64,000 nucleotides of DNA from an uncultured Gemmatimonadaceae bacterium (GCA_963740355.1 CAVUDW010000003.1:896001-960000); one strand, 5' to 3'. Positions 1-49,597 are shown, numbered from the stretch's first letter. A program made the numbers and translations. Notes: a model not told the origin generated them from the letters alone.

Positions 1-216
1 CTGGTACTTATCGAGATCGGCCTGGCGTGACTCGTACTCGGTCAATTCCTGCTCGACCTCATCCTTTGCCTTGCCATACCGCTTCTGGATCGCACCGATG
101 AGCTGGTCACGCTTGCCCGCGATGACATCCATGTCGTCGTCGGTCAGCTTGCCCCACTGCTCGCGCAGCTTGCCCTTGGCGTCCTTCCAATTCCCTTCGA
201 TGGTATCCCAGTTCAA
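1..216 (-). CDS. csbD: CsbD family general stress protein (3' end runs off the window)
   Basis: Not in the ORF track. Manual translation from TTG at 216: MNWDTIEGNWKDAKGKLREQWGKLTDDDMDVIAGKRDQLIGAIQKRYG, a classic CsbD/YjbJ signature. AGGAG RBS upstream. Confidence 0.93.
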   Translation of the reverse strand, partial: MNWDTIEGNWKDAKGKLREQWGKLTDDDMDVIAGKRDQLIGAIQKRYGKAKDEVEQELTEYESRQADLDKYQ

Positions 217-243
217 GGAGACTCCTTGCAAGGGGTAAAAATC

Positions 244-343
244 AAAAAAGCGCGACAGAGCACCCCAGCACGGGGACTCGATCACGCCTTCGACTGACTG
301 GGCCTCAGCCCGATCCGTCAAGGATCCCTGAACGATCTCAGGG
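244..343 (-). ncRNA. Putative attenuator RNA element, copy A (csbD leader)
   Basis: Minus strand: hairpin CCCTGA/TCAGGG, then CCTTGACG-[GATCGGGC TGAG GCCCAGTC]-AGTCGAAGGCGTGA...TCGCGC-TTTTTT. Ends about 27 nt before the csbD start. Confidence 0.7.
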
Positions 344-368
344 TATGTCGTGCAACAGCTTCTATACG

Positions 369-384
369 TGCAAGATGCGTGCTC
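369..384 (-). promoter_or_regulatory. sigma54-like -24/-12 motif (AG in place of GG at -24)
   Basis: GAGCAC-GCATC-TTGCA versus consensus TGGCAC-N5-TTGCW, located just upstream of RNA copy A. Confidence 0.4.
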
Positions 385-420
385 GCGCCTCGCGTAGGAG
401 TCGCGCGCAAAGAACCGAAC

Positions 421-1140
421 TCAGTTGTATTGCAACAGCAACTCCAGACGCTGACGCAGCTCCGCCAGTTGCTTCGACTTGAAGGCGTGCTTCGTCTCCT
501 CGAGCACCTCGACCGTGTGCTGAATCGCGGCAGTCAGCTGCGAACCACGCGGGCAGTTCATGATCTGGCAGGCGTGCGCATCCACTGGTGTACCAGCCAG
601 CGCACGTCCCAACTGCTCGAGATCAGTAAGCGATCCCATCACATTGCGGAGCGCGAGCGACAGGAAGGTGTCAGCACTTGGTGCACCGGGGCCACGCTGT
701 GTGGCAAGCTGGTCGTACCGCTGCCGCATGTCGTTCAGCCGCAACTCCGCATCCTGCATCGAACGGAACGACCGGAAGCGCGTGACGGCTGCGTTGACAC
801 GCTCCGCCAGCTCGGAGTACTGCACCGGCTTGGTCAGGTACGCCGCCACCGGCAGCTCGATGCTCGCCACCGCCGACCGAACACTGGGGAAACCGGTGAG
901 GATGATTACCGGCAAGCCGCCACGCACCTGGGCCACCCGTCGCACCAGCGCGAGGTCGCTGTTTCCCGGCATCTCGAGATCGGTGATCAACAGGTCGAAC
1001 TGTTCATCCACGATCAACTCGAGTGCGCGAGAACCGTCGAGCGCCGTCTCGCACTCGTACCCATCGCGACGCAACAGGTCAGCGGTGGATTCGAGGAACG
1101 TCGGCTCGTCATCGGCAATCAGGATCCGGCCCCGCGTCAT
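421..1140 (-). CDS. Response regulator (REC domain plus non-canonical helical C-terminal domain)
   Basis: ILIADDE...DLLITDLEMPG...ILTG...YLTKP receiver motifs; 4-bp overlap with the upstream kinase. Confidence 0.92.
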   Translation of the reverse strand: MTRGRILIADDEPTFLESTADLLRRDGYECETALDGSRALELIVDEQFDLLITDLEMPGNSDLALVRRVAQVRGGLPVIILTGFPSVRSAVASIELPVAAYLTKPVQYSELAERVNAAVTRFRSFRSMQDAELRLNDMRQRYDQLATQRGPGAPSADTFLSLALRNVMGSLTDLEQLGRALAGTPVDAHACQIMNCPRGSQLTAAIQHTVEVLEETKHAFKSKQLAELRQRLELLLQYN

Positions 1141-3713
1141 GCTGTCACTCCAGGAACTGATGTCTCTGCAAGGGGAATCCTTGCGATGAACTCCGCGCCA
1201 CCACCGGCGGCATCGGCCACGTTAATGCTTCCACCGGCTGCATCAAGTGCGCGGCGGACCAGCGACAGCCCCAATCCCATGCCGCCGGTCGAGAGTTGCG
1301 ACGGCTTGGTGGAGACGAATGGGTCGAAAATTTCCTCGCGCAACTCACTTGGCACGCCCGGACCCATGTCGCTCACGCGAAGCACGAAGTCGGGACCGTC
1401 GATCCAGCCCTGCACCGACACCGTCGACCCGCGCGGCGACGCCTCGATGGCGTTCTGCACCAGGTTGTACACACATTGCCGAAGAATCGTGTTCGGCAGG
1501 CGCACGACCGCAGCGATGCCACCCATCTCCACCTCAATGCTAACACCGGTGTTGCGATTCACCTGCTCCAGGAAGGCAACCGCATCGCCCACCACCGTCT
1601 GCACCGGCGCGTTGGAGCTCGACTCGGTCTCCGGACGGTAGGTCTCATACAGCTGGCGCGTGACCTGGCTGATCCGCTCCACCTCACGCTCGATCGCTCC
1701 CACATACTTCACGTGCGGGTGGGTCGCCGGAATCGCATCCTTGATCAACAGGAATGCGCTCTGGATGCCGGCCAGCGGATTGTTGATTTCGTGTGCGATC
1801 CGCGCGGCCAACCGCCCCATGGTGCTCATGGTCTCCGCTTGCCGGAGGGATTCCTCGGCGTGGCGACGATCGGTCACGTCAGCGAACATGCCAAGCAGGC
1901 GCATCGGCGTGCCCTCCGGCGAATAGAGCACCACCCGTCCGCGATCGAGGAAATCGTGCCATCGGCCCGCTGCGCTTTTCACGCGGTACTGCGCGTCGAA
2001 GGCATCCACGCGTCCAGCCAGATGATCCGCGATGCGTGCCTCGACCCCCGGTCGATCCTGCGGATGAATCAGTGCCAGCCAGTCGGACATCCGCCGCAAG
2101 GCGGCACCACTGCCATACCCCAATCGCACCCAGAGCTGCGGTGATCGCGTCACGACACCACTCAACAGGTCCCACTCCCACAATCCGTCCGTCGTCGACT
2201 GCAGCGCGCGATCGAGTGCCGCGCGCTCCTCGCGACGTGCCGTTTCCGACACTGATTGCGCCAGCCGCAGTGCGATCGCCAGCAGCACCGACACCGCGAT
2301 CCCAAGCAGGAGCACGAAATCACTCAAGCTGGAGGGCGTCACGGCTGCGGTGCGCGCCGACGGCCACACGCCGAGTTCCCATTCCGGCCCGCCGCGGATG
2401 ACCGCCTCGCGCACCAGGTGATGCAGACCACCGGCTGCTGCTGCCGGCGCCGACGCGCGAAACCACGCGCCCTGCTTTCCGATCGCCATCTCGAAGCCGA
2501 GCACTGTGTCGGCCAGCACGGTGCCGAGCAGCGTCCTCGAATCGACGAGGGCCACGAATATAGCGCTGCAGTCGGTGGCAACGCATCGCGGAATCACCAT
2601 CAGCGCACGGGAAGGATCACCGTGCAATGGGATGAATCGTGCCTTGCCCGTGATGTCCGCCCGAATCTGCGGCGCGAGCGGTCGGACAGTGACGTCGATC
2701 GTGTCGAGCATTCCTCCGCGCGCGCCGTTGTTGGCCGCCAACCGCTGGCCTTCACGATCCGTCCACACCATCGCCTCGAGCCCGCCGATGTCATCCACGA
2801 TCTGCGCCGACACAGCGCTCCATCGCGCGTCGGGCGCCTGGCTGTAGCGCGCCTGTCGTTGCAGGCTACGCTGCGCGACCATCAGCTGGCGGATCACCGC
2901 CGAGCGTGTGGCTCGTGCGGCGACTCGCGTCTGCTGGCTGAGGAGTCGGTCCTCGCTCAGCAAAAGGGCGCGCCAAAGCAGGAGGACTGTGACGAGTGAC
3001 CCCGCCCCAACCGAGAGTGGAAGCCATGCAGGCGGCGGCGAGAAGCCCGCTTCCTTGGTCCAGACGAGCGCATTGAAATGTGTCGCGAAGACGATCGCGC
3101 AGACCGTCGACTGCAGCGACGACCCAAGCAACGGCCCGTACTCCAAGCCATCCAGGAAACCCATCAGCTGACCGACGATCACTGTCGTGGCGAGGAGCAT
3201 GACGATCCCCCCAGAGGCCGACAGAATGATCGACGACCAGAGTCCCCGGCGACGCGACACGATCGCGAGCAGACCAACACCCCCAAGGGTCACGAAGACC
3301 GCGCTCGATAACGCTACCTGCCCAGGCATTTCGCCGTGCCAGTTCGCGTGCGCGGGCGACGGAATCTGCGCCAGGGCCGTCCACAACCAGTCGATCCCCT
3401 GCGCGTGCTGGAGGGCAATCGTCCCCAGCACGATCGCGATCACTCCGCAGACCTGTGCGATCCGCTGCCGCGAAGGGAACGGTGACGCATACAGGCCGGC
3501 TCCAACGAACAGCAGCCCGAGTGCCGGCATCACGCGCAACGGCGGGAAGGCGTCGAAGGGCTGCATCAACCACGCGACGTCCAGCACCCAGCCAAGCAGC
3601 GCCACGGCGGCCGTCGCGATCAGTAGCAACGCCACCGACCGCGACGCACTCGCCGTCACGAAGGCTCGCATCACTACGAGCACCTTCGGACGATACGAGG
3701 TGGCGCGTGCCAC
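1137..3713 (-). CDS. Membrane-bound PAS-domain sensor histidine kinase
   Basis: Multiple N-terminal TM helices; PAS/PAC (GLWEWD...IHPQDR); H-box AHEINNPL; N-box NLVQNAIEA; G boxes DMGPG and GMGLGL. Confidence 0.93.
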   Translation of the reverse strand: MARATSYRPKVLVVMRAFVTASASRSVALLLIATAAVALLGWVLDVAWLMQPFDAFPPLRVMPALGLLFVGAGLYASPFPSRQRIAQVCGVIAIVLGTIALQHAQGIDWLWTALAQIPSPAHANWHGEMPGQVALSSAVFVTLGGVGLLAIVSRRRGLWSSIILSASGGIVMLLATTVIVGQLMGFLDGLEYGPLLGSSLQSTVCAIVFATHFNALVWTKEAGFSPPPAWLPLSVGAGSLVTVLLLWRALLLSEDRLLSQQTRVAARATRSAVIRQLMVAQRSLQRQARYSQAPDARWSAVSAQIVDDIGGLEAMVWTDREGQRLAANNGARGGMLDTIDVTVRPLAPQIRADITGKARFIPLHGDPSRALMVIPRCVATDCSAIFVALVDSRTLLGTVLADTVLGFEMAIGKQGAWFRASAPAAAAGGLHHLVREAVIRGGPEWELGVWPSARTAAVTPSSLSDFVLLLGIAVSVLLAIALRLAQSVSETARREERAALDRALQSTTDGLWEWDLLSGVVTRSPQLWVRLGYGSGAALRRMSDWLALIHPQDRPGVEARIADHLAGRVDAFDAQYRVKSAAGRWHDFLDRGRVVLYSPEGTPMRLLGMFADVTDRRHAEESLRQAETMSTMGRLAARIAHEINNPLAGIQSAFLLIKDAIPATHPHVKYVGAIEREVERISQVTRQLYETYRPETESSSNAPVQTVVGDAVAFLEQVNRNTGVSIEVEMGGIAAVVRLPNTILRQCVYNLVQNAIEASPRGSTVSVQGWIDGPDFVLRVSDMGPGVPSELREEIFDPFVSTKPSQLSTGGMGLGLSLVRRALDAAGGSINVADAAGGGAEFIARIPLAETSVPGVTA

Positions 3714-3787
3714 GATCTCCCGGACGGTTGGACGGTTCAGCGATGCTCCCGGTATCTACGACAAGGACAGCGCGCGGGCCCTGCGGG

Positions 3788-4282
3788 CTACGCCACTGCA
3801 TCAGACCACTCGGCAAGAGGAGCGGACGACACTGCGCCGAACTGCAATGCCCGTGACCCGATCCGCGCCAGCGACTCCTCCAGCACATGCACCGATCGCT
3901 CGACATGTGCCTGACGTGCGAAGCGGAGCGCAAAGCTGCACGATCCCATCAGGAACACCTGCGCCTGCTGCAGCACGCGGATGATCTCCTGATCACGCGC
4001 CACCGACGCGGCACGGTCGCGCAAGGCCGTCAGGGACCGGAACAGCGTGCGAGTGAGATCGCCATCGGTCCGATCACGCCGAACGAGCACGTCACCAAGA
4101 ATACCATCCAGGTGCGCCAGATGTTCGGCGATTGCGGCCTCGAACCCAGCCACGATCTCAGCGCGCTGCTTGGACACCAGCAAACTCCGGAACACCGGCA
4201 GCGTCACGAACAGCGAAATGCTGCCATCATGCAGCTCCGCGAGCTCCTCGGCGAACTGCCCATTTACTGTTGCATCAGCCAT
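3788..4282 (-). CDS. Divergent DUF892/YciF-like ferritin-fold protein
   Basis: Aligns by eye with the YciF at 7138 (LAELH/LKDLY, EHLAHLDGILG/QHVARLDEIFG, RDQEII/RDAGII, LEESL/LEQTL). GGAG RBS. Confidence 0.65.
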   Translation of the reverse strand: MADATVNGQFAEELAELHDGSISLFVTLPVFRSLLVSKQRAEIVAGFEAAIAEHLAHLDGILGDVLVRRDRTDGDLTRTLFRSLTALRDRAASVARDQEIIRVLQQAQVFLMGSCSFALRFARQAHVERSVHVLEESLARIGSRALQFGAVSSAPLAEWSDAVA

Positions 4283-4327
4283 GGCTGCTCCACGTCGGCC
4301 CAGGCACGCAGAACGCCCTTGGCCGTG

Positions 4328-4408
4328 AAAATGAAAAGCGCGCGCGACTCCATTGCGATGGAATCGCCCGCGCCTTCAACTGACGAGCCCAAGTCTCGTC
4401 CGCCAAGT
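4328..4408 (-). ncRNA. Putative attenuator RNA element, copy B (leader of the DUF892-like/kinase/regulator genes)
   Basis: ACTTGGCG-[GACGAG ACTTGGG CTCGTC]-AGTTGAAGGCGCG...CGCGC-TTTTCATTTT; ends about 45 nt before the 4282 start. Confidence 0.65.
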
Positions 4409-4536
4409 GTACCCGCTCAGAATTCTTCCGGCAGGTCAGAAAACAAGTAATAGGGCGCGATTCCGCGGCGCAAGCAGCCAAGTCCTTCCGGACTCGCCTC
4501 TCGCGCCCTGCGCAACAATCCCGGCGAAATATCAGG

Positions 4537-4656
4537 TCACCGCGTCACCGGCGTCGCCGTCCGCGACTCGGCATCGCGACCGCGGTTCGAGCATGCGTAT
4601 GCCAGCATCGCGACCAGGACCAGGCCAGCCGCAGGGAGCATCATGCGTGTCTTCAT
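4537..4656 (-). CDS. Small 39-aa lipoprotein (below the ORF-track cutoff)
   Basis: MKTRMMLPAAGLVLVAMLAYACSNRGRDAESRTATPVTR*: basic N-terminus, hydrophobic core, lipobox-like AYA|C. GGAGG RBS. Directly follows RNA copy C. Confidence 0.65.
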   Translation of the reverse strand: MKTRMMLPAAGLVLVAMLAYACSNRGRDAESRTATPVTR

Positions 4657-4683
4657 GGGAAATCAGCCTCCAGATTCGCGCAC

Positions 4684-4788
4684 AAAAAAGGCGACGACTG
4701 ACCTGACGGTCAGGAATCGCCTCCAACTCGCGGATCGCCTTCTCCGCGCGAAAAGGTCATGCCAACGCCCGCGTGCACCACGCAGACA
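4684..4788 (-). ncRNA. Putative attenuator RNA element, copy C (small lipoprotein leader)
   Basis: Hairpin TGTCTGCGTG/CACGCGGGCG, then CCTTTTCG-[CGCGGA GAAGGCGA TCCGCG]-AGTTGGAGGCGA...TCGCC-TTTTTT. Confidence 0.7.
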
Positions 4789-4799
4789 CATCAGGATTT

Positions 4800-4815
4800 T
4801 GCATCAACCATGCCA
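4800..4815 (-). promoter_or_regulatory. sigma54 -24/-12 promoter motif
   Basis: TGGCAT-GGTTG-ATGCA (GG-N10-GC), about 12 nt upstream of the first hairpin of RNA copy C. Confidence 0.6.
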
Positions 4816-4831
4816 ACGGTCACCACCTGTC

Positions 4832-4847
4832 CGGCGCGCTTCGTGCA
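4832..4847 (+). promoter_or_regulatory. sigma54-like -24/-12 motif, divergent partner
   Basis: CGGCGC-GCTTC-GTGCA (GG-N10-GC), about 90 nt upstream of the 4939 start. Confidence 0.4.
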
Positions 4848-4938
4848 CCGGCATCATACGTCGCGCGATGTGTCACGACGCGCGCATATCGTCGCAGTGT
4901 CGAAGTCAGCGCAGAAGAATCTTTCGAGTGAGGTAGAT

Positions 4939-5487
4939 ATGTCAGACAACAACGCCACCGCCGTTAACGCACAGCATGATCCGCAGGATGATGCACAGCT
5001 TCGCCTGCGCGAACTGATCAGCGGAATGCGAATCGCGATGGCAACCACCATTGCCGCCGACGGCGAGTTGCACAGCCGACCGATGTATGCGCAGGACGCC
5101 ACCGCCGATGGCGACCTCTGGTTCGCCACATCGCGCTCGTCCTCGATGGTGAAGGAGTTGCGCAACCGCTCGACGATCCATGTCACCTTTTCCGACACCG
5201 ACAAGCAGCGATACGTCGTGCTTCGCGGCGAGGGATTCGTCCGTCACGATGCAGCCAAGATCGAGGAGCTGTGGAATCCGGCCATGAAGGCGTGGTTCCC
5301 CGGCGGCCCATCGGACCCGGACCTCACCCTTGTGCGTGTCGAGGCGATGAGTGCCGAGTACTGGGATTCACCCAGCGCGCCGGTACGCTGGCTTCAGTTC
5401 GTGAAGGCCCTGGCGACCGGTAGCCGGCCACAAGGTGGCGGCCATGTCACGCTCGACACGATCGACTCTGGGCTCGCCGGCAAGTGA
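4939..5487 (+). CDS. General stress protein, pyridoxamine 5'-phosphate oxidase-like family
   Basis: GELHSRPM, DLWFAT, IEELWNPAMKAWFPGGPSDPDL, AEYWD motifs; GAGG RBS before ATG 4939. Confidence 0.9.
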   Translation: MSDNNATAVNAQHDPQDDAQLRLRELISGMRIAMATTIAADGELHSRPMYAQDATADGDLWFATSRSSSMVKELRNRSTIHVTFSDTDKQRYVVLRGEGFVRHDAAKIEELWNPAMKAWFPGGPSDPDLTLVRVEAMSAEYWDSPSAPVRWLQFVKALATGSRPQGGGHVTLDTIDSGLAGK

Positions 5488-5569
5488 TCGAGCATTCCGA
5501 CGTCCGCGTCGCAATCGAGCGCGCGGCCGCGCACCAATTCCAGCAAGGCACAACATCGTGAAAGCTCCA

Positions 5570-6769
5570 ATGAACCTGCATTCGGGAACGCCGTTCTGGC
5601 TGGTCAAGAATGGCGTGTGCCCAAGCCGCACCGCGCTCAACGCGTCCGAGACATGCGATGTGGCGATCATCGGTGCCGGTATCACCGGAGCGCTCCTCGC
5701 CGACTCGCTGACGCGGGCGGGCCTCGACGTCGTCGTGCTCGACCGACGTGAATCGGGGGGCGGCAGCACCAGTGCCAGCACCGCACTGCTGCAGTATGAA
5801 ATCGACATCGAGTTGCTGGCCCTCGGTGAGCACATCGGCAAGGATCAGGCATCGCGCGCCTATGTCGCGTCCGCCAAGGCGGTCGAGACCCTCGGCACGC
5901 TGGCCATCGAGCTTGGAGGATGTGACTTCCAGGCGCGATCGAGCCTCTACCTCGCCTCGACGCGAAAGGATGCCGACCGGCTGGAGCAGGAAGCGGTGGC
6001 CCGTGCCGCCATCGGAATTCCAGTGCAGTGGTGGTCGAAGAAGGAGGTGAAGTCGCGCTACGGTTTCGCATCCTTCGGAGCCATCCGCAGCGCACAGGCT
6101 GCCGAGATCGATGCCCTGCAAATGTGCCGGGCGCTGCTGGAGCGCGCCCAGGGACGCGGCGCGCGGTGGTACGAGCAAACCGGTGTGACGGCGTATGAGG
6201 AACGGGGTGCCGGTGTACGCCTGTTCACCGCCAACGGTGAAACGATCAACGCCAAGCTCATCGTCTGCGCCACTGGATACGATGTGCCAGCGTTCCTCAA
6301 GCAGGATCGCTGCACACTCCACAGCACCTACGCCCTGGCGACGCATCGCCTGCCGAGCTTCGGACCGTGGGACGATCGCTGTCTGGTGTGGGAGTCCGCG
6401 CGGCCTTACTGCTACCTCCGCACGACCAGTGACCGCCGCATCATCATCGGCGGCGAGGATGTGCCATTCCGCGACGCCGCATGGCGTGATCGCCTGCTAC
6501 CGGGCAAGACGCAGAAGCTGGAGCAACGGCTGCAGCGCCTGCTCCCCGACCTCGAGACCGAGACGGCATTCGAATGGGCAGGCACCTTTGCGGAGACGAA
6601 AGATGGCCTGCCGTACATCGGTCGCGATGAACGGTACCCCGGCGTGCTCTTCGCACTCGGCTACGGCGGCAATGGAATCACGTTCAGTGCGATCGCGGCC
6701 GACCTGCTCACCGCAGAATGTCGCGGTGAGACATCAGCAGACGCCGATCTCTACAGAATGACACGCTAG
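5570..6769 (+). CDS. FAD-dependent oxidoreductase (DAO/glycine oxidase family)
   Basis: DVAIIGAGITG, GGGSTSASTALLQYEID, WAGTFAETKDGLPYIG, GYGGNGITF. Confidence 0.92.
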   Translation: MNLHSGTPFWLVKNGVCPSRTALNASETCDVAIIGAGITGALLADSLTRAGLDVVVLDRRESGGGSTSASTALLQYEIDIELLALGEHIGKDQASRAYVASAKAVETLGTLAIELGGCDFQARSSLYLASTRKDADRLEQEAVARAAIGIPVQWWSKKEVKSRYGFASFGAIRSAQAAEIDALQMCRALLERAQGRGARWYEQTGVTAYEERGAGVRLFTANGETINAKLIVCATGYDVPAFLKQDRCTLHSTYALATHRLPSFGPWDDRCLVWESARPYCYLRTTSDRRIIIGGEDVPFRDAAWRDRLLPGKTQKLEQRLQRLLPDLETETAFEWAGTFAETKDGLPYIGRDERYPGVLFALGYGGNGITFSAIAADLLTAECRGETSADADLYRMTR

Positions 6770-6783
6770 ATCGCGCAAACGTC

Positions 6784-6799
6784 TGGCGCAGTATTTGCA
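6784..6799 (+). promoter_or_regulatory. sigma54 -24/-12 promoter motif
   Basis: TGGCGC-AGTAT-TTGCA, near consensus; upstream of the yciF leader. Confidence 0.7.
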
Positions 6800-6919
6800 C
6801 TCTCCTCGATACCAACAGTGACAGACACGACGCCGACCTGATATACCGCGCGTCGTTGAAACACGAGACCGAAGCAGGTCTCACCATTGACGACAGATCC
6901 GGTTCCGCCGCGTCTGTTT

Positions 6920-6995
6920 CCTTGTCGCTCGAGTCGAAGGCTCGAGAGATGAAGGCGCGAACGGTGCCCCGGTGCCGACTCGCGCCTTCTTGTTT
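6920..6995 (+). ncRNA. Putative attenuator RNA element, copy D (yciF leader)
   Basis: CCTTGTCG-[CTCGAGTC GAAG GCTCGAG]-AGATGAAGGCGCGA...TCGCGCCTTC-TTGTTT. Confidence 0.7.
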
Positions 6996-7137
6996 CCGGG
7001 CATCGAGCCCGGCAATTCGGACGCGGATGCACATGGTATCCCGTCCGTACACCACGCACCTCGTCGGTACCTCGGTACGCGACGCGATGCGCAGAGTCTG
7101 CGCCTGCGAAGGCGGCGCAGCATGGAGGATCGACACG

Positions 7138-7710
7138 ATGGCGCTCGCAACGATGCACGACCTGATGATTGCTGAATTGAAGGATCTCTACAGCGCCGAA
7201 ACGCAGTTGGTGAAGGCGCTGCCGAAGATGGCCAAGGGCGCCAACACGCCCAGCCTCCGCAAGGCCTTCGAGGATCATCTCGAGCAAACGCAGCAGCACG
7301 TGGCACGACTCGACGAAATCTTCGGCATTCTCGGCTCCAGCCCGCGTGGAACCAAGTGCAAGGGCATGGAGGGGTTGCTCGAGGAAGGCAGCGAGATGCT
7401 CGAGGAAGAGGGCGACGACACGGTGCGTGATGCCGGGATCATCGCAGCCGCACAACGCGTCGAGCACTACGAGATCGCGGCCTACGGGAGCACCCTCGCC
7501 TTCGCGACTCTGATGGGCCATTCCGAAATCGCCGAACTGCTCGAGCAGACGCTCGAGGAGGAGAAGGCGGCCGATGTACTCCTCAGCTCGATCGCCGAGG
7601 AGGAGGTGAACATCGCCGCACCTGGCATGGAGGCCGTCGATGATGACGCCGACGTTGACGAGTCTGACGTGAAGACGAAGGCTCGCGCGACGACGCGCAA
7701 GACGCGCTGA
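7138..7710 (+). CDS. yciF: Ferritin-like DUF892 (YciE/YciF) stress protein
   Basis: LKDLYSAETQLVKALPKMA, HLEQT, KCKGMEGL, AAAQRVEHYEIAAYG, LEEEK; GGAGG RBS. Confidence 0.93.
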   Translation: MALATMHDLMIAELKDLYSAETQLVKALPKMAKGANTPSLRKAFEDHLEQTQQHVARLDEIFGILGSSPRGTKCKGMEGLLEEGSEMLEEEGDDTVRDAGIIAAAQRVEHYEIAAYGSTLAFATLMGHSEIAELLEQTLEEEKAADVLLSSIAEEEVNIAAPGMEAVDDDADVDESDVKTKARATTRKTR

Positions 7711-7729
7711 TCACACTGCCCTCCAACCA

Positions 7730-7765
7730 CGCGTGGCGCCGGCTCAGATTGGCCGGCGCCACGCG
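7730..7765. terminator. 14-bp GC hairpin downstream of yciF
   Basis: CGCGTGGCGCCGGC-N8-GCCGGCGCCACGCG; no U tract. Confidence 0.5.
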
Positions 7766-8029
7766 ATGCGCCCGCGCGCCGTCGCGACACTCACATCGCA
7801 GCTGACAGGTTGCCGCTGACGTCGATTCCGCAATCGCTGAGGCGGAAACGCTACGTGGGGCAGTACCGGGTAATCCCGATGCTGCCCCACCATTGCGTGT
7901 CCGCGCAAGGATATATGAACATCAGCTTTCACGAGGAACTCGTTCGCTCCCCGGAGCGCGCCGGCGCTGCCACCTCGACATCACGTGCTACGACATTTCG
8001 TCAGGGCTCGGATTTCCGGACCCAAAACG

Positions 8030-8123
8030 AAAAAAGACATGAACCGTGGCCAGGAGCCGTGGTTCATGCCTTCGACTGACGAGGTCTGATCCTCGTCCGA
8101 CAAGGCGCCTCATACAGCGAGGC
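8030..8123 (-). ncRNA. Putative RNA element, copy E (no clear downstream CDS)
   Basis: Hairpin GCCTC/GAGGC, then CCTTGTCG-[GACGAGG ATCAGA CCTCGTC]-AGTCGAAGGCATGAACC...GGTTCATGTC-TTTTTT. Confidence 0.7.
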
Positions 8124-8193
8124 ACATGTCCGTGCGGGACTGCAACTTCAGGTGCTTGTCGTCGTCCCGCGCTCTCGGTGAACGCCTGACGAC

Positions 8194-9036
8194 CTACAAC
8201 CCCTTCGCAAACCCCTCACGAAAAGAAGCATAGCGGGGGGACCAGCCTGACGCCAGTAGAGCTCGGTTAGAAACCCGCTGGTTGTTCCGGCTTCGCTGCT
8301 GGTCATTGGCAAAAACCAGCTGGTCCGGATTCCCACCAGCGGATGCCACCAACCAGCGTGACACGTCCGCGGCGAGCGCAGGGGAACCATCACTCACATT
8401 CAGCACCCGTGGCACGCCATCGGCCTTCAGCATATGCAACAGCGATGCCACGATGTCGGCCTGATGGGCGAGGTTGGTCCAATACTGACCGCGCTCAGGG
8501 AGCGTGGCGGCATCGCGCATGCGCCCGCGAGGATCACGCCCAGGGCCATAGATCCCTGCCACGCGCAGCACGGTCACCCCGCTCTGCCCTGACGAGAGGA
8601 GGATGTCTTCCGCAGCGATCAATGCCGCGTTGCCGCTCCCCTCACCGAGGCGCGGGCTCTCCTCAGTCACCCACGCACCGTCGCGCCCGCCGTATACTCC
8701 CGTACTCGACGTATAGAGGAGCGACTGCGCGCCAGTCGCTCGCGCCAATGCCAGCGCTCCCATCGCGGCCGGCGGGTACACATCGTCGTATGCGTCCGCA
8801 CCGCGTGATGGCGCCACCGTGAGCACCACCGCGTCCAGCGTCGACGGCAGGCCATCGACCTGCCCCGCCGCGATATCCCCGCGCAACCAGGTCACACCGC
8901 CAGTGTCCGTCGTTACGCCACTGCGGCGCACGGCCCAGACGGCGTGGCCGACGTCACGCGCAGCCGTGGCGAAGGCACGGCCCACATAGCCGGCGCCAAG
9001 CACCGCGATTCGAAGTTGCTGCACAGGTTCAGTCAT
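8194..9036 (-). CDS. NAD-dependent epimerase/dehydratase (atypical SDR)
   Basis: IAVLGAGYVG, YTSSTGVYG, VLRVAGIYGPGR. Confidence 0.88.
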   Translation of the reverse strand: MTEPVQQLRIAVLGAGYVGRAFATAARDVGHAVWAVRRSGVTTDTGGVTWLRGDIAAGQVDGLPSTLDAVVLTVAPSRGADAYDDVYPPAAMGALALARATGAQSLLYTSSTGVYGGRDGAWVTEESPRLGEGSGNAALIAAEDILLSSGQSGVTVLRVAGIYGPGRDPRGRMRDAATLPERGQYWTNLAHQADIVASLLHMLKADGVPRVLNVSDGSPALAADVSRWLVASAGGNPDQLVFANDQQRSRNNQRVSNRALLASGWSPRYASFREGFAKGL

Positions 9037-9070
9037 GGCACAAGGATACGCCGATTTACCTTCCTCGTGC

Positions 9071-11008
9071 ATGCTCACCCAACCGCCCTCGGGCCACCAA
9101 CGTGATCACGGAACGCGAGACGCATCCACCGAGCGGGATGTTCCGCGAGCGCGTGCACTGGCATTGAAGTACGGCTGGAATGCGATGGCGTATCAGGTCG
9201 TGAACGACGGCATGCAACACTGGTTTGCAGCCGACGGCGACGCGGTCATCGGCTACGTGCGCACACACGGCGTCTGCCTCGTGGCCGGCGCACCGATCTG
9301 CGATGCTGAGCGCCTGGCCGATGTTCTGGATGAATGGGAGCGATTTCTTTCCAGCATCGGCTGCAAGGCCTGCTACTTCGGCGCGGCGGGCCGCGTCTTC
9401 GATGCCCTGCACGATCGCGAGGGTTACTCGACCGTCGTGCTTGGCGCGCAGCCGGTCTGGCACCCCGCACGGTGGCCGCAGATTCTCGAGCGCAGCGCGT
9501 CCCTGCGCGGCCAGACACACCGTGCGCGCAACAAGGGAGTGACGGTCAGCGAATGGACACCCGAGCGTGCCTCGGCCGACGACCGCCTGCGTCTCTGCCT
9601 CGACCAGTGGCTCAGATCCCGCGGACTGCCCACACTCCATTTCCTCGTCGAACCGCACACGCTGCACGATCTCACCGGGCGACGGATCTTCGTCGCCGAG
9701 CGTGGGCGCGACGTCGTTGGATTCATCAACGCGTCACCCGTGCCCGCACGGCGTGGCTGGCTCGTGGAACAGTTCGTCCGCAGTGCGCGTGCACCCAACG
9801 GCACCATCGAGGCGCTGCTGGACACCATGATGCGCGCGGTGGCGGCTGATGGCGCCGAGTATGTGACGATGGGGCTCGTGCCGCTCCGGGAAGGCGGTGC
9901 CACGCCAATCAATGTGAATCCCGCCTGGCTGGTCGCGGTGCTCAAGCTCGTTCGCGTCCATGGACGCCGCTTCTACAACTTCGGAGGCCTTGAACGATTC
10001 AAGACAAAATTCCAGCCGGATGCATGGGAACCGATCTACGCCATCAGCGCTGAACCGGCATTTTCGATCCGGACGCTGTACGCGATAGCCGCCGCGTTCA
10101 CCGTGCAATCGCCACTGCTCGCAGCGGGTGGTGGCCTCGTTCGCGCCGTCGCCGTCGAGCTCGACCGACTACAACGCTCTCTCGGTCTCAAGCGCCGCAG
10201 AGCCTGCAGCGACGCGCCCATCGCGGCGTGGTCGTGTCCGGCCGATCAGCAGTTCCGTCAGCAATGCATCGACATCCAGCTGCGTGGGGATGTGGTGGGT
10301 TGCGGCAGATTCCTTCCATCGACCGACGCGCACACCAAGGCTGGCGCTGCCGTCGAGTACTCGAAACGCCGCTTCATCCGTGAGCTCGTCGCCGACGAAG
10401 AGCGCCCCGGGCAACTGGTGCTGCTCGATCAGGTGCTTGAGCGCATCACCTTTGTCAGGCGCACCCGATGGAATCAGGTTCACGAGCCCGATGCCTTGTA
10501 CCAGCGTCACCTTGTGTGGCAGCGTGGGCGCCAGCACTTCCATCGCAGCAATGGCCACGCCGGGGTCGGGAGCGTGCCAGTAGTGCACCGACACCGACTG
10601 CACCTTGTTCTCGATTTCGACACCATCGAGGCCGGCGACGACTTCCGTCAGGCGCGGCATCCAAGCCGCCACTTCACGCGCGGCACGCTTGGCGAATGGC
10701 GAAGGCTCGGCGCCGTGGTTGCCGATGACGGCCAGCAGGGGAATGCCCTCGAGCCGCGGCGAGACATCGTGCACCGAGCGACCGGTGATCACCGCCACCG
10801 GCGCCGCGTGCGCAAGGCTCCGCAAGAGCTCTGCGGTTTCGACGCGCATCCGGGTCGCCGCCGGATCGGTTCCCATCGGCGCCAGGGTGCCGTCGAAATC
10901 GAACCCCAGCAATGCACCGCTGGCGCCGAGGGCGCGAAGTCGTTCGATGTTGCGAGCAGCGAGAATGTTTCGGCTTGGCACTCAGGAGTGATTGCAGGAT
11001 TGATCTGA
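9071..11008 (+). CDS. DUF2156 / phosphatidylglycerol lysyltransferase-like C-terminal domain protein; frame stays open antisense across otsB
   Basis: AGAPIC, APNGTIE, FYNFGGLERFKTKFQPDAWEPIY motifs. Recognisable similarity ends near 10170 but the first stop is at 11006-11008. Confidence 0.75.
   Translation: MLTQPPSGHQRDHGTRDASTERDVPRARALALKYGWNAMAYQVVNDGMQHWFAADGDAVIGYVRTHGVCLVAGAPICDAERLADVLDEWERFLSSIGCKACYFGAAGRVFDALHDREGYSTVVLGAQPVWHPARWPQILERSASLRGQTHRARNKGVTVSEWTPERASADDRLRLCLDQWLRSRGLPTLHFLVEPHTLHDLTGRRIFVAERGRDVVGFINASPVPARRGWLVEQFVRSARAPNGTIEALLDTMMRAVAADGAEYVTMGLVPLREGGATPINVNPAWLVAVLKLVRVHGRRFYNFGGLERFKTKFQPDAWEPIYAISAEPAFSIRTLYAIAAAFTVQSPLLAAGGGLVRAVAVELDRLQRSLGLKRRRACSDAPIAAWSCPADQQFRQQCIDIQLRGDVVGCGRFLPSTDAHTKAGAAVEYSKRRFIRELVADEERPGQLVLLDQVLERITFVRRTRWNQVHEPDALYQRHLVWQRGRQHFHRSNGHAGVGSVPVVHRHRLHLVLDFDTIEAGDDFRQARHPSRHFTRGTLGEWRRLGAVVADDGQQGNALEPRRDIVHRATGDHRHRRRVRKAPQELCGFDAHPGRRRIGSHRRQGAVEIEPQQCTAGAEGAKSFDVASSENVSAWHSGVIAGLI
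10169..10981 (-). CDS. otsB: Trehalose-6-phosphate phosphatase
   Basis: HAD motifs FDFDGTLAP, ITGRS, GNHGAE, IENK, DKGDAL, FVGDELTDEAAF; adjacent to otsA. Confidence 0.93.
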   Translation of the reverse strand: MPSRNILAARNIERLRALGASGALLGFDFDGTLAPMGTDPAATRMRVETAELLRSLAHAAPVAVITGRSVHDVSPRLEGIPLLAVIGNHGAEPSPFAKRAAREVAAWMPRLTEVVAGLDGVEIENKVQSVSVHYWHAPDPGVAIAAMEVLAPTLPHKVTLVQGIGLVNLIPSGAPDKGDALKHLIEQHQLPGALFVGDELTDEAAFRVLDGSASLGVRVGRWKESAATHHIPTQLDVDALLTELLIGRTRPRRDGRVAAGSAALETERAL

Positions 11009-47905: not shown

Positions 47906-47978
47906 AGCGGGAGACGGGACTCGAACCCGCGACCTTCAGCTTGGGAAGCTGACACTCTACCAACTGAGTTACTCCCGC
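47906..47978 (-). tRNA. tRNA-Gly (CCC)
   Basis: GCGGGAG acceptor stem, TCAGC-TTCCCAA-GCTGA anticodon arm, GTTCGAGTC T-loop. Confidence 0.95.
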
Positions 47979-48077
47979 AGAACCACATCACCACCACGAA
48001 CCCGTACACTCGACTGCAATCCTACCGCGCACCCTGCCGCCTCGCAACCAAGCGGACGACAGCCTCCGCACTGCAAT

Positions 48078-48590
48078 CTAGCGTCGGCGGCTGCCCTGCA
48101 CACGTACCGCCGCCGTCCCGCCATACCCCGTAAGCCCTCGTTCCCGCACCAGAGCCACGACTGGGGTCCGATTCAGTGCCGACGCCACGCGATCGAATGT
48201 CTCGAGCGTCGGATTCGCCCCGCTCCGCTCCAACTTCGCCACGGATTTCGGCGACATCCCCAGCCGCTGAGCCAGATCGGCCTGCGTCAGCCCCTCCTCG
48301 GTCCGGGCTCGGCGAAGCATGATGCGCAACGCGGTCGCCGTCGGAATCACTGGGACCCGAATCGCGCGAGACCCGCGCGGCGCTCGCCTGGCCGGGCCAG
48401 GCTCCATTACCACTCCCCCGGCATCAAGCGTCGCCTCGAGCCAACCAGCCAGCGCTTCGGTCGCCATGGGCAGGAGCCGCTCGATACTCTCGACCTGCGT
48501 CACGCATCCCGGCGCGTCCGGGAACGTCACCACGAATGCACCATCGTCTGGTGTCACGATTGCGGGATAGAACACCGGAGGGCCCTCCAT
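48078..48590 (-). CDS. hicB: HicB antitoxin fused to an XRE HTH
   Basis: YPAIV...FVVTFPDAPGCVTQ...EALAGWL; ARTEEGLTQADLAQRLG..VAKLERS.ANPTL. Confidence 0.9.
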   Translation of the reverse strand: MEGPPVFYPAIVTPDDGAFVVTFPDAPGCVTQVESIERLLPMATEALAGWLEATLDAGGVVMEPGPARRAPRGSRAIRVPVIPTATALRIMLRRARTEEGLTQADLAQRLGMSPKSVAKLERSGANPTLETFDRVASALNRTPVVALVRERGLTGYGGTAAVRVQGSRRR

Positions 48591-48591
48591 C

Positions 48592-48777
48592 TCAGAATCG
48601 AATGCCGGACTGTCGTTCGATCGATTTCAGCGTTCCCTTGCGCAGATCCTTGACCGGATGCGGCACGGTCACGGTTCCAGGTTTTGTCGCATGCTGAAAA
48701 TGGTGGTGCGATCCTTTGACGCGAACCTCGCGCCAACCGTCAGCGCGAAGCGCATTGATCACGTCGCGCGAGTGCAT
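48592..48777 (-). CDS. hicA: HicA mRNA interferase toxin
   Basis: LRADGW..VRVKGSHHHFQH..KPGTVTVPHP.KDL.KGTLKSI. Confidence 0.92.
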   Translation of the reverse strand: MHSRDVINALRADGWREVRVKGSHHHFQHATKPGTVTVPHPVKDLRKGTLKSIERQSGIRF

Positions 48778-48923
48778 GATACAACACTTTCTTGCACGTG
48801 ACATCGGGCAATGTCGCGCGCAAGCGCCATCATGCGCGACGTAGCAAAACCACGCACACACAAACGACAAACGCCCCGGCATGGCCGAGGCGCGCTTGTC
48901 ATTCCGTCATCCAACACGTCCAG

Positions 48924-48995
48924 AGCCACAGAAGGGGATTGAACCCTTGACCGCTCGATTACGAATCGAGTGCTCTACCACTGAGCTACTGTGGC
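48924..48995 (-). tRNA. tRNA-Thr (CGT)
   Basis: CTCGA-TTCGTAA-TCGAG anticodon arm; full cloverleaf. Confidence 0.95.
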
Positions 48996-49026
48996 AGGTC
49001 CCTCATAAAGACCGAGGAAACCACAA

Positions 49027-49108
49027 TGCCCTGACGCGGACTCGAACCGCGACGCCTTGCGGCACCACCCCCTCAAGATGGCGTGTCTACCAATTTCACC
49101 ACCAGGGC
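49027..49108 (-). tRNA. tRNA-Leu (GAG)
   Basis: CCATC-TTGAGGG-GGTGG; long variable arm GCCGCAAGGC. Confidence 0.95.
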
Positions 49109-49157
49109 GTCCCAACCCACGAATCCCTTTCCTGCGACGTATCTCCCAAACTTCCAA

Positions 49158-49231
49158 CGGGGCCGACGGGGCTCGAACCCGCGACCTCCGCAGTGACAGT
49201 GCGGCACTCTAACCGACTGAGCTACGGCCCC
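49158..49231 (-). tRNA. tRNA-Asp (GTC)
   Basis: CCGCA-CTGTCAC-TGCGG. Confidence 0.95.
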
Positions 49232-49329
49232 AATTGTTGTCCTCCACCCGCACCTGCTCCTGCACCACCCAGGACAGCGGACTTTTAATCCGACAGTCGC
49301 CATCCCGCCCCACACCTTCACCCGCAACG

Positions 49330-49401
49330 TAGCGCGTACGGGAATCGAACCCGTCTCTGGACCTTGAAAGGGTCCCGTCCTAACCGATAGACGAACGCGC
49401 C
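49330..49401 (-). tRNA. tRNA-Glu (TTC)
   Basis: GGACC-CTTTCAA-GGTCC. Confidence 0.95.
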
Positions 49402-49478
49402 TCAGGCCAGAATCCCTACTCCACCGGCCACACTCCCAACACCCACACCGCCTCTCCCGCCGCGGCTACTCCACTCCA

Positions 49479-49551
49479 TAGCGCTAACGGGATTCGAACC
49501 CGTGTTCCAGCCTTGAGAGGGCCGTGTCCTAGTCCCCTAGACGATAGCGCC
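49479..49551 (-). tRNA. tRNA-Glu (CTC)
   Basis: CGGCC-CTCTCAA-GGCTG. Confidence 0.95.
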
Positions 49552-49597
49552 GTCGTCGAACAGTTGTCCTACTCCAGCACCACCACTGCACTTCTCA

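Follow-up and report, generated by a model that had tools for sequence, protein, structure and literature searches.

Why would one cluster of genes in a bacterial chromosome carry the same small hairpin in five of its intergenic regions, each time joined to what looks like a transcription terminator? The cluster lies in a 64,000-nt stretch of DNA (GCA_963740355.1 CAVUDW010000003.1:896001-960000, hereafter the window; positions are counted from its first nucleotide) from an uncultured Gemmatimonadaceae bacterium. Gemmatimonadota are common in soils and, to our knowledge, almost nothing is known about how they regulate their genes. An earlier note on this DNA described five elements (A to E) as a shared RNA that gates a stress regulon. 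The computational checks proposed there all turned out in support of the note. We find that the element is a previously undescribed hairpin-plus-terminator RNA that precedes stress-protection genes, and its sequence suggests that it attenuates transcription in cis, from the 5' leaders of a stress-protection regulon. With more than 150 copies, covariation and an expression platform, the motif is a computationally well-supported RNA family, and it defines a Gemmatimonadota stress regulon by sequence.

Copies of the motif in the window, the genome and related genomes

All five elements lie at the positions and on the strands reported earlier (Table 1). The pattern CCTTNNCG-N12-30-AGNNGRAGGC has four matches in the 64-kb window, compared to 0.03 expected from 100 dinucleotide shuffles of the same sequence (sd 0.22, largest 2). 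Copy B starts ACTT and hence is found by the CTT form of the pattern. We trained a covariance model (R1) on the genome's own seven copies, two of which lie outside the five of the window. These seven score 43.6–49.3 bits, and the next best match in the genome scores 20.4 bits.

A covariance model built from the seven copies added more than 150 others, from the genomes of relatives and from metagenome contigs. They stem from two families, and the nearest named records are titled Gemmatimonadaceae or Gemmatimonadales. Scanning public genomes with the pattern gave at least 121 stretches. Among the 80 loci listed, six score above 33 bits with R1, and each of the six is from a record titled Gemmatimonadaceae or Gemmatimonadales; at 27 bits or less, the remaining 74 resemble chance or coding matches. 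Three further matches were set aside as chance: two without a terminator (G148, L190:2222-2264; G160, L192:2276-2316) and one in the genome itself, within ORF-like sequence (C3:1691420).

The earlier note could not match the motif's loop to riboswitches or to protein-bound attenuators such as BglG-RAT, ANTAR and PyrR. In Rfam 15, the motif has no counterpart. At gathering thresholds, Rfam 15 identifies only eight tRNAs in the whole window. For region 1–9000 at E ≤ 5 there is one chance match (17.2 bits, against a gathering score of 38), and leader A alone scores 10–14 bits at best, against gathering scores of 35–500. Among the open-access papers searched for Gemmatimon*, we found none on a leader RNA element of this kind; the accessible part of PMC12448109, which mentions gemmatimon, has c-di-NMP receptor proteins as its subject.

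Table 1. Positions of the features discussed, in window coordinates
Feature	Position	Strand	Basis
csbD, after copy A	1..216 (runs off window)	-	Pfam CsbD, E = 6.9e-21
Copy A terminator, stem from G36-AAGG of motif, U tract 237-249	237..291	-	folds
Copy A P1 hairpin motif	284..325 (core 286-323)	-	R1, 48.0 bits; pattern match
Copy A P0, CCCUGA-loop-UCAGGG	326..343	-	sequence and fold; directly 5' of motif
Copy A -24/-12-like promoter element AGCACGCATCTTGC (putative)	370..383	-	inferred from sequence; 44 nt upstream of motif
Response regulator, REC plus uncharacterised C-terminal domain (residues ~116-239)	421..1140	-	Pfam: REC only
Sensor histidine kinase (PAS_3, HisKA, HATPase_c; long N-terminal membrane region)	1137..3713	-	Pfam; same operon as regulator
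164-aa protein, first gene after copy B	3788..4282	-	orthologues follow motif in relatives
Copy B terminator over GAAGGCG, with U tract	4327..4377	-	folds
Copy B P1 hairpin motif	4370..4410 (core 4372-4408)	-	R1, 43.6 bits
Copy B P0 hairpin	4411..4438	-	fold
39-aa lipoprotein-like ORF after copy C	4540..4656	-	predicted ORF
Copy C terminator over GGAGGCG, with U tract	4684..4724	-	folds
Copy C P1 hairpin motif	4717..4758 (core 4719-4756)	-	R1, 46.2 bits
Copy C upstream hairpin (P0)	4767..4787	-	fold; 8 nt from motif
Copy D P0 hairpin	6892..6917	+	fold
Copy D P1 hairpin motif	6918..6958 (core 6920-6956)	+	R1, 47.6 bits
Copy D terminator over GAAGGCG, with U-rich tract	6951..6995	+	folds
DUF892 (YciF-like) gene after copy D	7138..7710	+	Pfam DUF892, E = 1.1e-57
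Conserved structured region (candidate non-coding RNA) after copy E	7740..8027	-	14-sequence alignment
Copy E terminator over GAAGGCA, with U tract	8028..8073	-	folds
Copy E P1 hairpin motif	8066..8107 (core 8068-8105)	-	R1, 47.2 bits
Copy E P0, GCCUC-loop-GAGGC	8107..8123	-	fold

A conserved, irregular hairpin

The motif, P1, is a hairpin of 39–44 nt with the form cCUUGnCG-[variable stem-loop]-AGnnGAAGGCG. Its base is the helix CCUU:AAGG. Above this come a bulged G36, the pairs G7-C/U35, n8-n34 and C9-G33, a G10·A32 mismatch and then the variable stem-loop. The KDCG/AGWYG internal loop drawn in the earlier note is therefore mostly paired, with n8-n34 covarying, and what remains of it are the mismatch and the bulge. 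About 17 positions are invariant or nearly so, and G7, C9, G10, A32, G33 and G36 remain fixed in both families as stem sequences change. In the alignment, P1 loops (∼4 to 9 nt) have no conserved positions, and P0 loops vary too.

Every copy forms the inner stem, and its paired positions covary, as had been claimed from the five elements. Among 92 distinct relatives, 95.0% of cells are paired, compared to 83.1 ± 0.6 in shuffles, and 9 of the 13 pairs show changes on both sides; in slid registers, used as a control, pairing is at most 51.9%. An independent set of 53 distinct metagenome copies gave much the same picture, with 92.9% paired and both sides changing in 10/13 pairs. G-U pairs are common: in the set of relatives, pair 8-34 reads GU (38), UA (23), AU (7) or CG (6). 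Given that the stem varies while pairing is kept, that G-U pairs are common and that the length ranges from 39 to 44 nt, these data argue for an RNA element rather than a DNA site.

We considered whether P1 might contain a kink-turn, which has a three-nucleotide bulge directly before tandem sheared G·A/A·G pairs. P1 has the single G10·A32 mismatch, and its sole bulge, the single base G36, lies three pairs from it. In 24/53 metagenome copies, pair 11-37 is non-standard, and some of these, read as single sequences, form a second, tandem G·A pair. A leader peptide was also rejected: GAAGG resembles a ribosome-binding site, but by eye no conserved start codon follows it.

A variable hairpin, P0, usually lies 5' of P1. 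One caveat here is that a control segment also yielded such a hairpin in 76/112 cases, as GC-rich genomes fold easily.

Overlap of the hairpin with an intrinsic terminator

The earlier note held that RAGG is common to the base of the hairpin and the base of a terminator, and this claim stands. A U tract follows the motif on the same strand in 110/112 unique leaders, at a distance of 25–52 nt (median 31 nt), and the predicted terminators have stems of 8–14 bp that abut the U tract. In the minimum-energy fold, G39 is paired into the terminator in all 92 leaders evaluated. The two nucleotides that precede the U tract read CC in 79/110 leaders and GC in 20/110, and as such can pair with G39-G40. 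One segment, G36-A37-A38-G39-G40, thus has two mutually exclusive partners, CCUU and the CCUUU of the terminator 3' arm, which is the layout of an attenuator.

The terminator is the favored fold. Forcing CCUU:RAGG costs 5.9 kcal/mol on average (range 1.9–10.5; 92 leaders), and hence closed P1 needs help. The terminator state leaves CCUU unpaired, yet its sequence is conserved. However, closing P1 removes just five terminator pairs, and the remaining hairpin is still 1–2 nt from the U tract, making the size of any read-through effect uncertain.

Downstream genes and a structured RNA

Genes that follow motif copies encode CsbD, DUF892/YciF, Ku, ATP-dependent DNA ligase, DUF1328, DUF4397 lipoproteins, a sigma-70-family factor and a kinase/regulator operon. 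This set is of the stress type wherever downstream frames were read, in the genome itself and in relatives. In the window, csbD and yciF follow copies A and D, as described earlier. The supposed DUF892-like gene after copy B, by contrast, encodes a 164-aa product that matches no Pfam or NCBIfam family. Where copy C precedes a 39-aa ORF, relatives have DUF4397 lipoproteins of 255–282 aa.

The earlier note named genes after four copies and none after copy E. Copy E does lack a protein gene behind it, but the spacer is not empty. RNAalifold predicts 50 pairs in the conserved region found there, 21 of them with changes on both sides, and the region contains no credible ORF and has no Rfam match. 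We rejected an antisense ORF opposite this region, since variation within the conserved blocks falls in hairpin loops and their stems covary.

The start codon of genes behind csbD-type copies lies ∼20–30 nt after the U tract. This leaves no room for a separate promoter, and it follows that these genes are read through the terminator. Copies A and E lie after co-directional genes (the regulator gene and a gene at 8194–9078, respectively), whereas copy C, sited between divergent genes, has no co-directional gene upstream.

Putative promoters upstream of the leaders

Sigma-54 promoters are defined by a –24 GG and a –12 GC at fixed spacing (TGGCAC-N5-TTGC). A –24/–12-like element, [TAG]GC[AG][CT]-N5-[TCG]TGC, is present in 48/92 leaders (alignment A3), at a median of 46 nt upstream, compared to 2.1 in shuffles and 17 on the opposite strand; rpoN is present in the genome. 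The commonest form, AGCAC, is without the first G, and TTGC may instead be a –35 box. Other leaders show, by eye, TTGCG-N17-TAnnnT-like promoters. These observations suggest that a single common element sits behind promoters of different types.

A response regulator that co-occurs with the motif

The cluster encodes a response regulator of the REC family (239 aa), together with a sensor kinase. Its C-terminal domain matches nothing in Pfam, NCBIfam or the PDB; neither phmmer nor a 12-row profile found a PDB sequence at better than E = 0.17. Nor does it detectably resemble ANTAR: the hhalign alignment to the ANTAR regulator of this genome covers residues 2–145 and stops before the ANTAR domain. 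AF2 predicts a helical domain, preceded by a long helix, and the sequence contains an invariant C-x4-C-P and a basic TKxxFKSKxLxxLR segment. With 33 close homologues the pLDDT of the domain is 40–60, and with 60 diverse rows it is 91; both fold searches were filled by receiver-domain matches (residues 1–133). We collected 527 representatives of the domain at E ≤ 0.001. Of 24 that were scanned, 21 carry REC, two carry PAS domains and one carries MEDS, and judged by these architectures the domain behaves as a modular output domain. The automatic source names of relatives read 'DNA-binding response OmpR family regulator'.

Motif and regulator co-occur almost one-to-one. Among 61 relatives searched both ways, the motif is present in 21 and the C-terminal domain in 19; the two genus-mates without the domain are those with just one or two weak motif matches. 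In a family sample of 151 genomes, nine have both, and a tenth (G113) has a divergent motif copy beside its 47%-identical regulator. An order sample of the same size includes 16 genomes with both, two with the regulator only, two with the motif only and 131 with neither. In genus g63, the same 7/12 genomes carry motif and regulator. The two are also adjacent, with a motif copy at 21/26 regulator loci of other genomes and, in metagenomes, a same-strand copy at 48/69 eligible regulator loci (median 119 nt downstream).

Three genomes have the motif, with leader and terminator intact, and no detectable C-terminal domain. G005 is 100% complete and has its copy upstream of Ku; G015 is 86% complete; and G274, in 3 contigs and 97% complete, has its copy upstream of the gene for a 72-aa membrane protein. 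These genomes argue against the regulator being obligatory. Moreover, the co-occurrence may reflect one cassette gained or lost as a unit, the regulator operon itself being a regulon member, and the C-terminal domain could equally bind DNA or another protein.

A candidate mechanism

Computation establishes the RNA structure and its conservation, the G-AAGG segment common to hairpin and terminator, which genes lie downstream, and that regulator and motif are inherited together and lie next to each other. From these we infer that termination is regulated, that the bound state is ON and that the regulator binds the RNA. Our preferred reading, which we hold tentatively and regard as well short of assured, is that the element is a protein-dependent antiterminator whose RNA is bound by the cluster's response regulator. 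Once transcription has left the promoter, P0 would fold, and P1 would then form on its CCUU:AAGG base. By default, the downstream arm ...CGCCUUUU would take G36-A37-A38-G39-G40 from CCUU, producing the intrinsic terminator (OFF). A trans-acting protein could clamp closed P1, such that the terminator would be deprived of its lowest five pairs, those adjoining the U tract, and transcription would read through (ON). The likeliest clamp would be the phosphorylated regulator, with the kinase as its partner. Given that the regulator/kinase operon is behind leader copy B, this arrangement would give positive autoregulation. If true, Ku/ligase DNA repair, CsbD, ferritin-like YciF and a structured RNA would all be under one control element.

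Such an arrangement recalls ANTAR systems (EutV, AmiR, NasR/NasT). In both, a two-component regulator acts, or here is proposed to act, by preventing termination through a leader RNA that, in its 3' hairpin, shares sequence with the terminator; two hairpins in a row precede the terminator; and the regulator's own operon is among the controlled units. The regulators are also built alike, from REC, a long helix and a small helical output domain, and our model aligns to EutV (6wsh_A) over residues 1–149. However, ANTAR targets are two hairpins whose hexanucleotide loops have a conserved A at position 1 and G at position 4. The present RNA has no such paired hexaloops, its conserved bases being in the P1 stem, and the cluster's regulator has no ANTAR domain (PF03861) in Pfam. 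The genome's single ANTAR gene is on another contig. It is conceivable, then, though we would put this a shade more cautiously than the mechanism itself, that the C-terminal domain represents a second class of antiterminator output domain that binds RNA, unrelated to ANTAR. Its target in two Gemmatimonadales families would be the CCUUG.CG/AG..GAAGG hairpin, and by terminator read-through it would turn on a regulon of the desiccation/stationary-phase type (CsbD, YciF, Ku, ligase, structured RNA). We know of no established RNA-binding output domain in two-component signalling other than ANTAR. If the regulator is the binder, two-component signalling would gain a new one, and a domain family of hundreds would gain a function.

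P1 also resembles the RAT targets of BglG, SacY and LicT, where protein binding to the hairpin favors read-through. RAT, too, consists of one irregular hairpin whose mismatches and bulges hold conserved bases and whose 3' end overlaps the terminator 5' arm by a few nucleotides. Here, in contrast, the regulon has no sugar or PTS genes, and sequence and phylum differ. The RNA-binding domain CAT_RBD (PF03123) has no match in this genome (94.5% complete); a control search was positive in 4/14 reference genomes.

Alternatives to the regulator as binder

The helper that closes P1 need not be a protein. P1, perhaps stacked on P0, could be the aptamer of a riboswitch, its irregular helix binding a stress metabolite, a second messenger or an ion. 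The ligand would close CCUU:AAGG and block completion of the terminator, and the kinase/regulator operon would merely be one controlled operon. We consider this unlikely but worth serious attention. The layout is the classic one, in which the 3' strand of a P1-type closing helix is also the 5' base of the terminator, and as in riboswitches of that type there are many copies per genome before functionally related genes and occasional tandems (e.g. L186:8747 and L186:8889). The ∼17 near-invariant positions and the three genomes with intact copies but no regulator domain fit as well. Against this, the conserved part is a near-regular helix with one mismatch and a single-base bulge, with no multi-helix junction, pseudoknot or large internal loop, and it matches no known aptamer class. 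Helices of this kind are a more usual feature of sites recognized by proteins than of ligand pockets. The three-way pairing constraint already accounts for a large part of the sequence conservation (CCUU, AAGG, CGCCUU), nothing in the gene set points to a metabolite, and the near one-to-one link with one regulator family would need a second explanation. Were the RNA to bind a small molecule, it would be a new riboswitch class for a stress signal.

Alternatively, the attenuator could depend on a protein encoded elsewhere, either a general or a lineage-specific RNA-binding protein, with the two-component system acting at promoters or on another target. The irregular helix suits a protein, the C-terminal domain has no known nucleic-acid-binding signature, and G005, G015 and G274 retain the motif although they lack the regulator. 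We nevertheless think this improbable. No candidate was found, the genome having no CAT_RBD protein and only the one ANTAR protein on another contig, and because the leaders' promoters differ in type, a promoter-acting regulator would have no shared site to bind, short of the leader DNA itself.

It is similarly doubtful that there is no signal-dependent switch at all. A constitutive leader might hold read-through at a fixed low level, stabilize the 5' end or insulate operons, with cassette duplication accounting for conservation. The terminator is favored by ∼6 kcal/mol, GC-rich genomes fold easily (as the P0 control showed), and copies A and E could terminate the co-directional genes that they follow. 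However, a plain hairpin has no need of invariant G7, C9, G10, A32, G33 and G36, nor of a CCUU conserved in the state that leaves it unpaired, and copy C has no co-directional gene upstream to terminate.

A further possibility, which we regard as rather remote, is that the ∼100-nt terminated transcripts (P0-P1-terminator) are themselves the product, acting as multi-copy small RNAs in trans or as protein sponges, in the manner of Qrr or Rsm RNAs, some of them made from sigma-54-like promoters. The multiple copies, the single-stranded, conserved CCUU of the terminated form, the fixed distance of the –24/–12-like element in 48/92 leaders and the lack of a protein gene behind copy E are all consistent with this. 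Yet csbD-type genes start so close to the U tract that they are read through the terminator, and in the leaders examined a gene or structured RNA lies downstream on the motif's strand. Finally, the inverted repeat CCTTG../..GAAGG could be an operator downstream of the promoter for a dimeric transcription factor, perhaps the regulator, which could bind DNA and whose relatives are automatically named as OmpR family, but this is very improbable, as the half-site spacing varies with motif length, covariation and G-U pairs in the intervening stem are meaningless in duplex DNA, and a same-strand terminator follows nearly every element.

One described RNA bears comparison by virtue of its downstream gene. 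The YjbJ motif, as described in the accessible part of its report (PMC11109978), is a two-hairpin leader with a terminator upstream of a CsbD-family gene, and is a weak riboswitch candidate restricted to Streptococcus (40 representatives). Compared by description only, the present motif differs in being found in another phylum and before a wider set of genes. The authors of that report suggest that a protein factor may be the ligand of the YjbJ motif (PMC11109978).

A conserved hairpin in the leaders

All five elements of the earlier note read exactly as described, in position and strand. The pattern CCTTNNCG-N12-30-AGNNGRAGGC matched four times in the 64-kb window, compared to 0.03 matches expected (100 dinucleotide shuffles), and two further copies lie elsewhere in the same genome (5.45 Mb, 5 contigs, 65% G+C). 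A covariance model, R1, trained on the seven copies of this genome, scored them at 43.6–49.3 bits and the rest of the genome at ≤20.4 bits. By chance, a loose pattern scan also surfaced a different 40-nt sequence, CTTTCCGCCACCTCACTTAACCGCA...GAGCGGGAGGC, with at least four occurrences in the genome.

Coordinates of leader copies and other features (window numbering unless a contig or locus is named)
Feature	Position	Strand	Remark
Copy A core	286-323	-	precedes csbD
–24/–12-like element, copy A	370-383	-
Response regulator	421-1140	-	REC plus 124-residue C-terminal part
Its C-terminal domain	421-795	-
Copy B core	4372-4408	-	starts ACTT; matched by the CTT form of the pattern
ORF after copy C	4540-4656	-	39 residues; signal peptide and lipobox-like Cys
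Copy C core	4719-4756	-
Genes between copies C and D	4939-6769	+	pyridoxamine-5'-phosphate-oxidase-like protein (Pyrid_ox_like) and FAD-dependent oxidoreductase; neither with its own leader copy
Copy D core	6920-6956	+	precedes DUF892 (YciF-like) gene
RNA 3' of copy E	7740-8027	-	candidate non-coding RNA
Copy E core	8068-8105	-
tRNA genes	47906-49808	-	eight, clustered within 1.9 kb
Different 40-nt sequence	59781-59820	+
Same, three copies	G000:C3:1680674-1680947		window's genome
Extra motif copy	contig C2		precedes 162-aa lipoprotein-like gene
Extra motif copy	contig C3, ~320 kb away		precedes ATP-dependent DNA ligase
Tandem leaders	L186:8747-8930	+
Tandem leaders	L056:2111-2281	-

Written 5' to 3' along the transcript, the consensus reads cCUUGnCG-[6–7 bp stem, 4–9 nt loop]-AGnnGAAGGCGy. 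The base of this hairpin (P1) consists of C3-G40, C4-G39, U5-A38 and U6-A37. G36 is bulged, G7-C/U35, n8-n34 and C9-G33 pair above it, and a G10.A32 mismatch precedes the variable stem. Hence the 'KDCG / AGWYG internal loop' proposed earlier turns out to be mostly helix, with the mismatch and the bulged G36 remaining.

Covariation of the inner stem, also claimed earlier, was borne out. Among 92 distinct copies, in an alignment fitted to the R1 structure and so biased toward it, 95.0% of cells were paired, compared to 83.1 ± 0.6% in shuffles and ≤51.9% in slid registers; 9 of 13 pairs changed on both sides, with 142 double-change cells versus 44 ± 5 in shuffles. Pair 8-34, for example, was GU in 38 copies, UA in 23, AU in 7, CG in 6, GC in 2 and unpaired in 15. 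An independent metagenome set of 53 distinct copies, fitted with the same bias, gave 92.9% paired cells and double changes at 10/13 pairs. Pair 11-37 was unpaired in 24 of these 53, and single sequences, as read, suggest a second, tandem G.A pair in some of them. Aligned with MAFFT, the seven seed copies (91.2% paired, double changes at 6/13 pairs) agree with the fitted sets. We consider it very likely that a conserved, structured leader RNA overlapping a terminator exists.

Competing folds and putative promoters

For the flanks, we used 112 unique leaders, namely all but the last row of alignment A3 (which covers the genus and one genome of family f2) and, from alignment A6, rows 1–30, after dropping two rows without a terminator, incomplete flanks and duplicates. 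Counts of downstream ORFs, U tracts, hairpins, forced folds, promoter elements and metagenome adjacency rest on simple scripted criteria. A variable hairpin, P0 (≥5 bp, ending ≤6 nt from the motif), was found in 104/112 leaders, compared to 76/112 for a control stretch lying another 70 nt upstream, and its mean energy (–12.2 kcal/mol) was below that of the control (–9.0) and of shuffles (–7.7 ± 0.2). P0 is thus a genuine feature, though a weaker one. A U tract follows the motif by 25–52 nt (median 31) in 110/112 leaders, preceded by CC in 79 and GC in 20. In some genomes, two complete leaders, each with hairpin and terminator, stand in tandem ahead of one gene such as that for DUF1328.

Minimum-energy folds of whole leaders contain P0, upper P1 and the terminator, with CCUU left single-stranded. 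The terminator stem starts at G36, A37-A38-G39-G40 pair with ..CCUUU, and G39 was paired into the terminator in 92/92 leaders evaluated. Forcing CCUU:RAGG cost on average 5.9 kcal/mol (median 5.8, range 1.9–10.5; 92 leaders); the terminator then lost five pairs, and the remaining hairpin lay 1–2 nt from the U tract. Because the folds share G36–G40 and the forced P1 base costs energy, the earlier proposal that two structures compete for RAGGC, common to both bases, holds. The modeled default state is the terminator. During transcription, closed P1 would form first, the 3' arm of the terminator would then have to displace the P1 base, and any factor clamping closed P1 should promote read-through. 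The three-way constraint on 5' CCUU, AAGG and 3' CCUU explains why the bases of the P1 base are invariant rather than covarying.

Promoters were called by pattern alone. The element [TAG]GC[AG][CT]-N5-[TCG]TGC was present in 48/92 A3 leaders (shuffles, 2.1; opposite strand, 17), its median position being 46 nt 5' of the motif; in relatives, many csbD-, yciF- and E-type leaders have it with much the same spacing. Its forms, AGCACG-N4-TTGC or TGGCGC-N5-TTGC at a fixed ~46 nt from the motif, resemble a sigma-54 –24/–12 promoter; the commonest, AGCAC, lacks the first G. The genome carries rpoN, and the cluster encodes no AAA+ activator. By eye, TTGCG-N17-TAnnnT-like putative sigma-70 promoters stand before leaders of types B, F and G and before most of the copies outside the genus. 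What all members share is the transcribed hairpin alone.

Genes and RNA downstream

Downstream genes were read from ORFs and then checked against Pfam. Directly behind the motif stand genes for CsbD, DUF892/YciF, DUF4397 lipoproteins, the 162-aa lipoprotein-like protein, Ku, ATP-dependent DNA ligase, DUF1328, a sigma-70-family factor and further response regulators, as well as a 164–170-aa protein followed by the kinase and regulator, or, in genus g54, the kinase itself. From general knowledge of their families, we take these to be a stationary-phase or desiccation-type protection set. The earlier assignments of CsbD and YciF/DUF892 stood; the 'DUF892-like' gene before the kinase and regulator matched no Pfam or NCBIfam family. 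The lipoprotein gene behind copy C looks truncated in this genome, since relatives carry DUF4397 lipoproteins of 255–282 aa in place of its 39 residues.

No credible ORF lies behind copy E or its orthologues. A conserved RNA of ~250 nt follows instead, with five predicted hairpins (among them GCGC-N4-GCGC, a covarying second and a long GGGGCAGC...GCUGCCCC), and across 11 sequences both partners vary in 21 of the 50 predicted pairs. Orthologues occur at L051, L052, L041, L047, L027, L036, L045, L044, L025 and L053, and an Rfam search returned no match. We propose it as a candidate new non-coding RNA under leader control.

Distribution and a candidate partner

Covariance searches of related genomes, suggested earlier, were run with R1 (E ≤ 0.001 to 0.01) on four phylogenetically non-independent samples. 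Copies were found in 21/61 relatives (19/19 genus-mates, 0/17 in the family's other genera, f2 1/12, f3 0/12), 12/151 genomes of the family (several copies in g54, six each in two genomes), 18/151 of the order (f1 8/62, f2 9/61, f3 0/27) and 15/151 of the phylum (the window's genome and 14 others, from f1 or f2; ten other families 0/48). Among the matches listed from a public-genome pattern scan, six high-scoring loci are titled Gemmatimonadaceae or Gemmatimonadales bacterium. A relative of the regulator carries a name that places it in Gemmatimonadota. Many other matches, in unrelated genomes (L067–L131, Planctomycetes-type and Streptomyces records), share an identical 40-nt length and score only 20–27 bits with the structure model, and we rejected them as probable conserved coding segments.

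The distribution of the regulator mirrors that of the motif, making it a candidate partner. Among the 61 relatives, its C-terminal domain occurs in 19: 17/19 genus-mates, the window's genome and the f2 genome with the motif. G005 and G015, the two genus-mates in which it is missing, have only 1–2 weak motif matches. The family sample held both in 9 genomes, the regulator only in G113, the motif only in G005, G148 and G160, and neither in 138; the order sample held both in 16, the regulator only in G240 (35% identity) and G278, the motif only in G148 and G274, and neither in 131. A sensitive scan of G113 (regulator 47% identical) found a divergent copy 130 nt behind the gene, flanked by P0 and a terminator and with pair 7-35 flipped, raising the family count to 10; the matches in G148 and G160 lack a terminator and look like chance. 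In genus g63, the same 7/12 genomes carry both. A copy accompanies 21/26 regulator loci from other genomes and, on the same strand, 48 of 69 metagenome loci with ≥450 nt of downstream sequence (median 119 nt behind the gene).

For the C-terminal domain, neither Pfam nor NCBIfam gave a family, and PDB sequences gave no match. Its own family comprises at least 527 representatives at E ≤ 0.001 (including P0121–P0270), with (near-)invariant C-x4-C-P and T-K-x2-F-K-S-x2-L-x2-L-R. Since the 24 distant members scanned carry REC (21), PAS (2) or MEDS (1), it behaves as a modular output domain. In a confident AF2 model (60 rows, pLDDT 91), a helix of 40 residues leads into a unit of four helices; fold searches were dominated by the receiver domain.

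We tentatively favor an attenuator opened by this regulator, at somewhat less than an even chance. However, G005 (100% complete), G015 (86%) and G274 (97%, 3 contigs) retain intact leaders with terminators but lack the C-terminal domain even by profile search, which matched receiver parts alone; because motif and regulator sit in one cassette, being gained and lost together is no proof that they make contact; and the domain could instead bind DNA or protein. A small-ligand riboswitch is rather unlikely. In its proposed mode of action the motif resembles ANTAR and RAT antitermination as well as a P1-overlap riboswitch, yet it is a member of none: the Rfam check gave no family match, ANTAR's paired hexaloops and a partner with an ANTAR domain are lacking, the genome has no CAT_RBD protein, and kink-turn geometry is absent. 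The Streptococcus YjbJ motif (PMC11109978), a leader before a CsbD-family gene, comes from a different phylum. The open-access literature searched yielded no other published leader before a CsbD-family gene and no leader or attenuator RNA described in Gemmatimonadota. Binding by another protein and a constitutive element without a switch are each improbable, and trans-acting small RNAs slightly more so. A DNA operator is very improbable.
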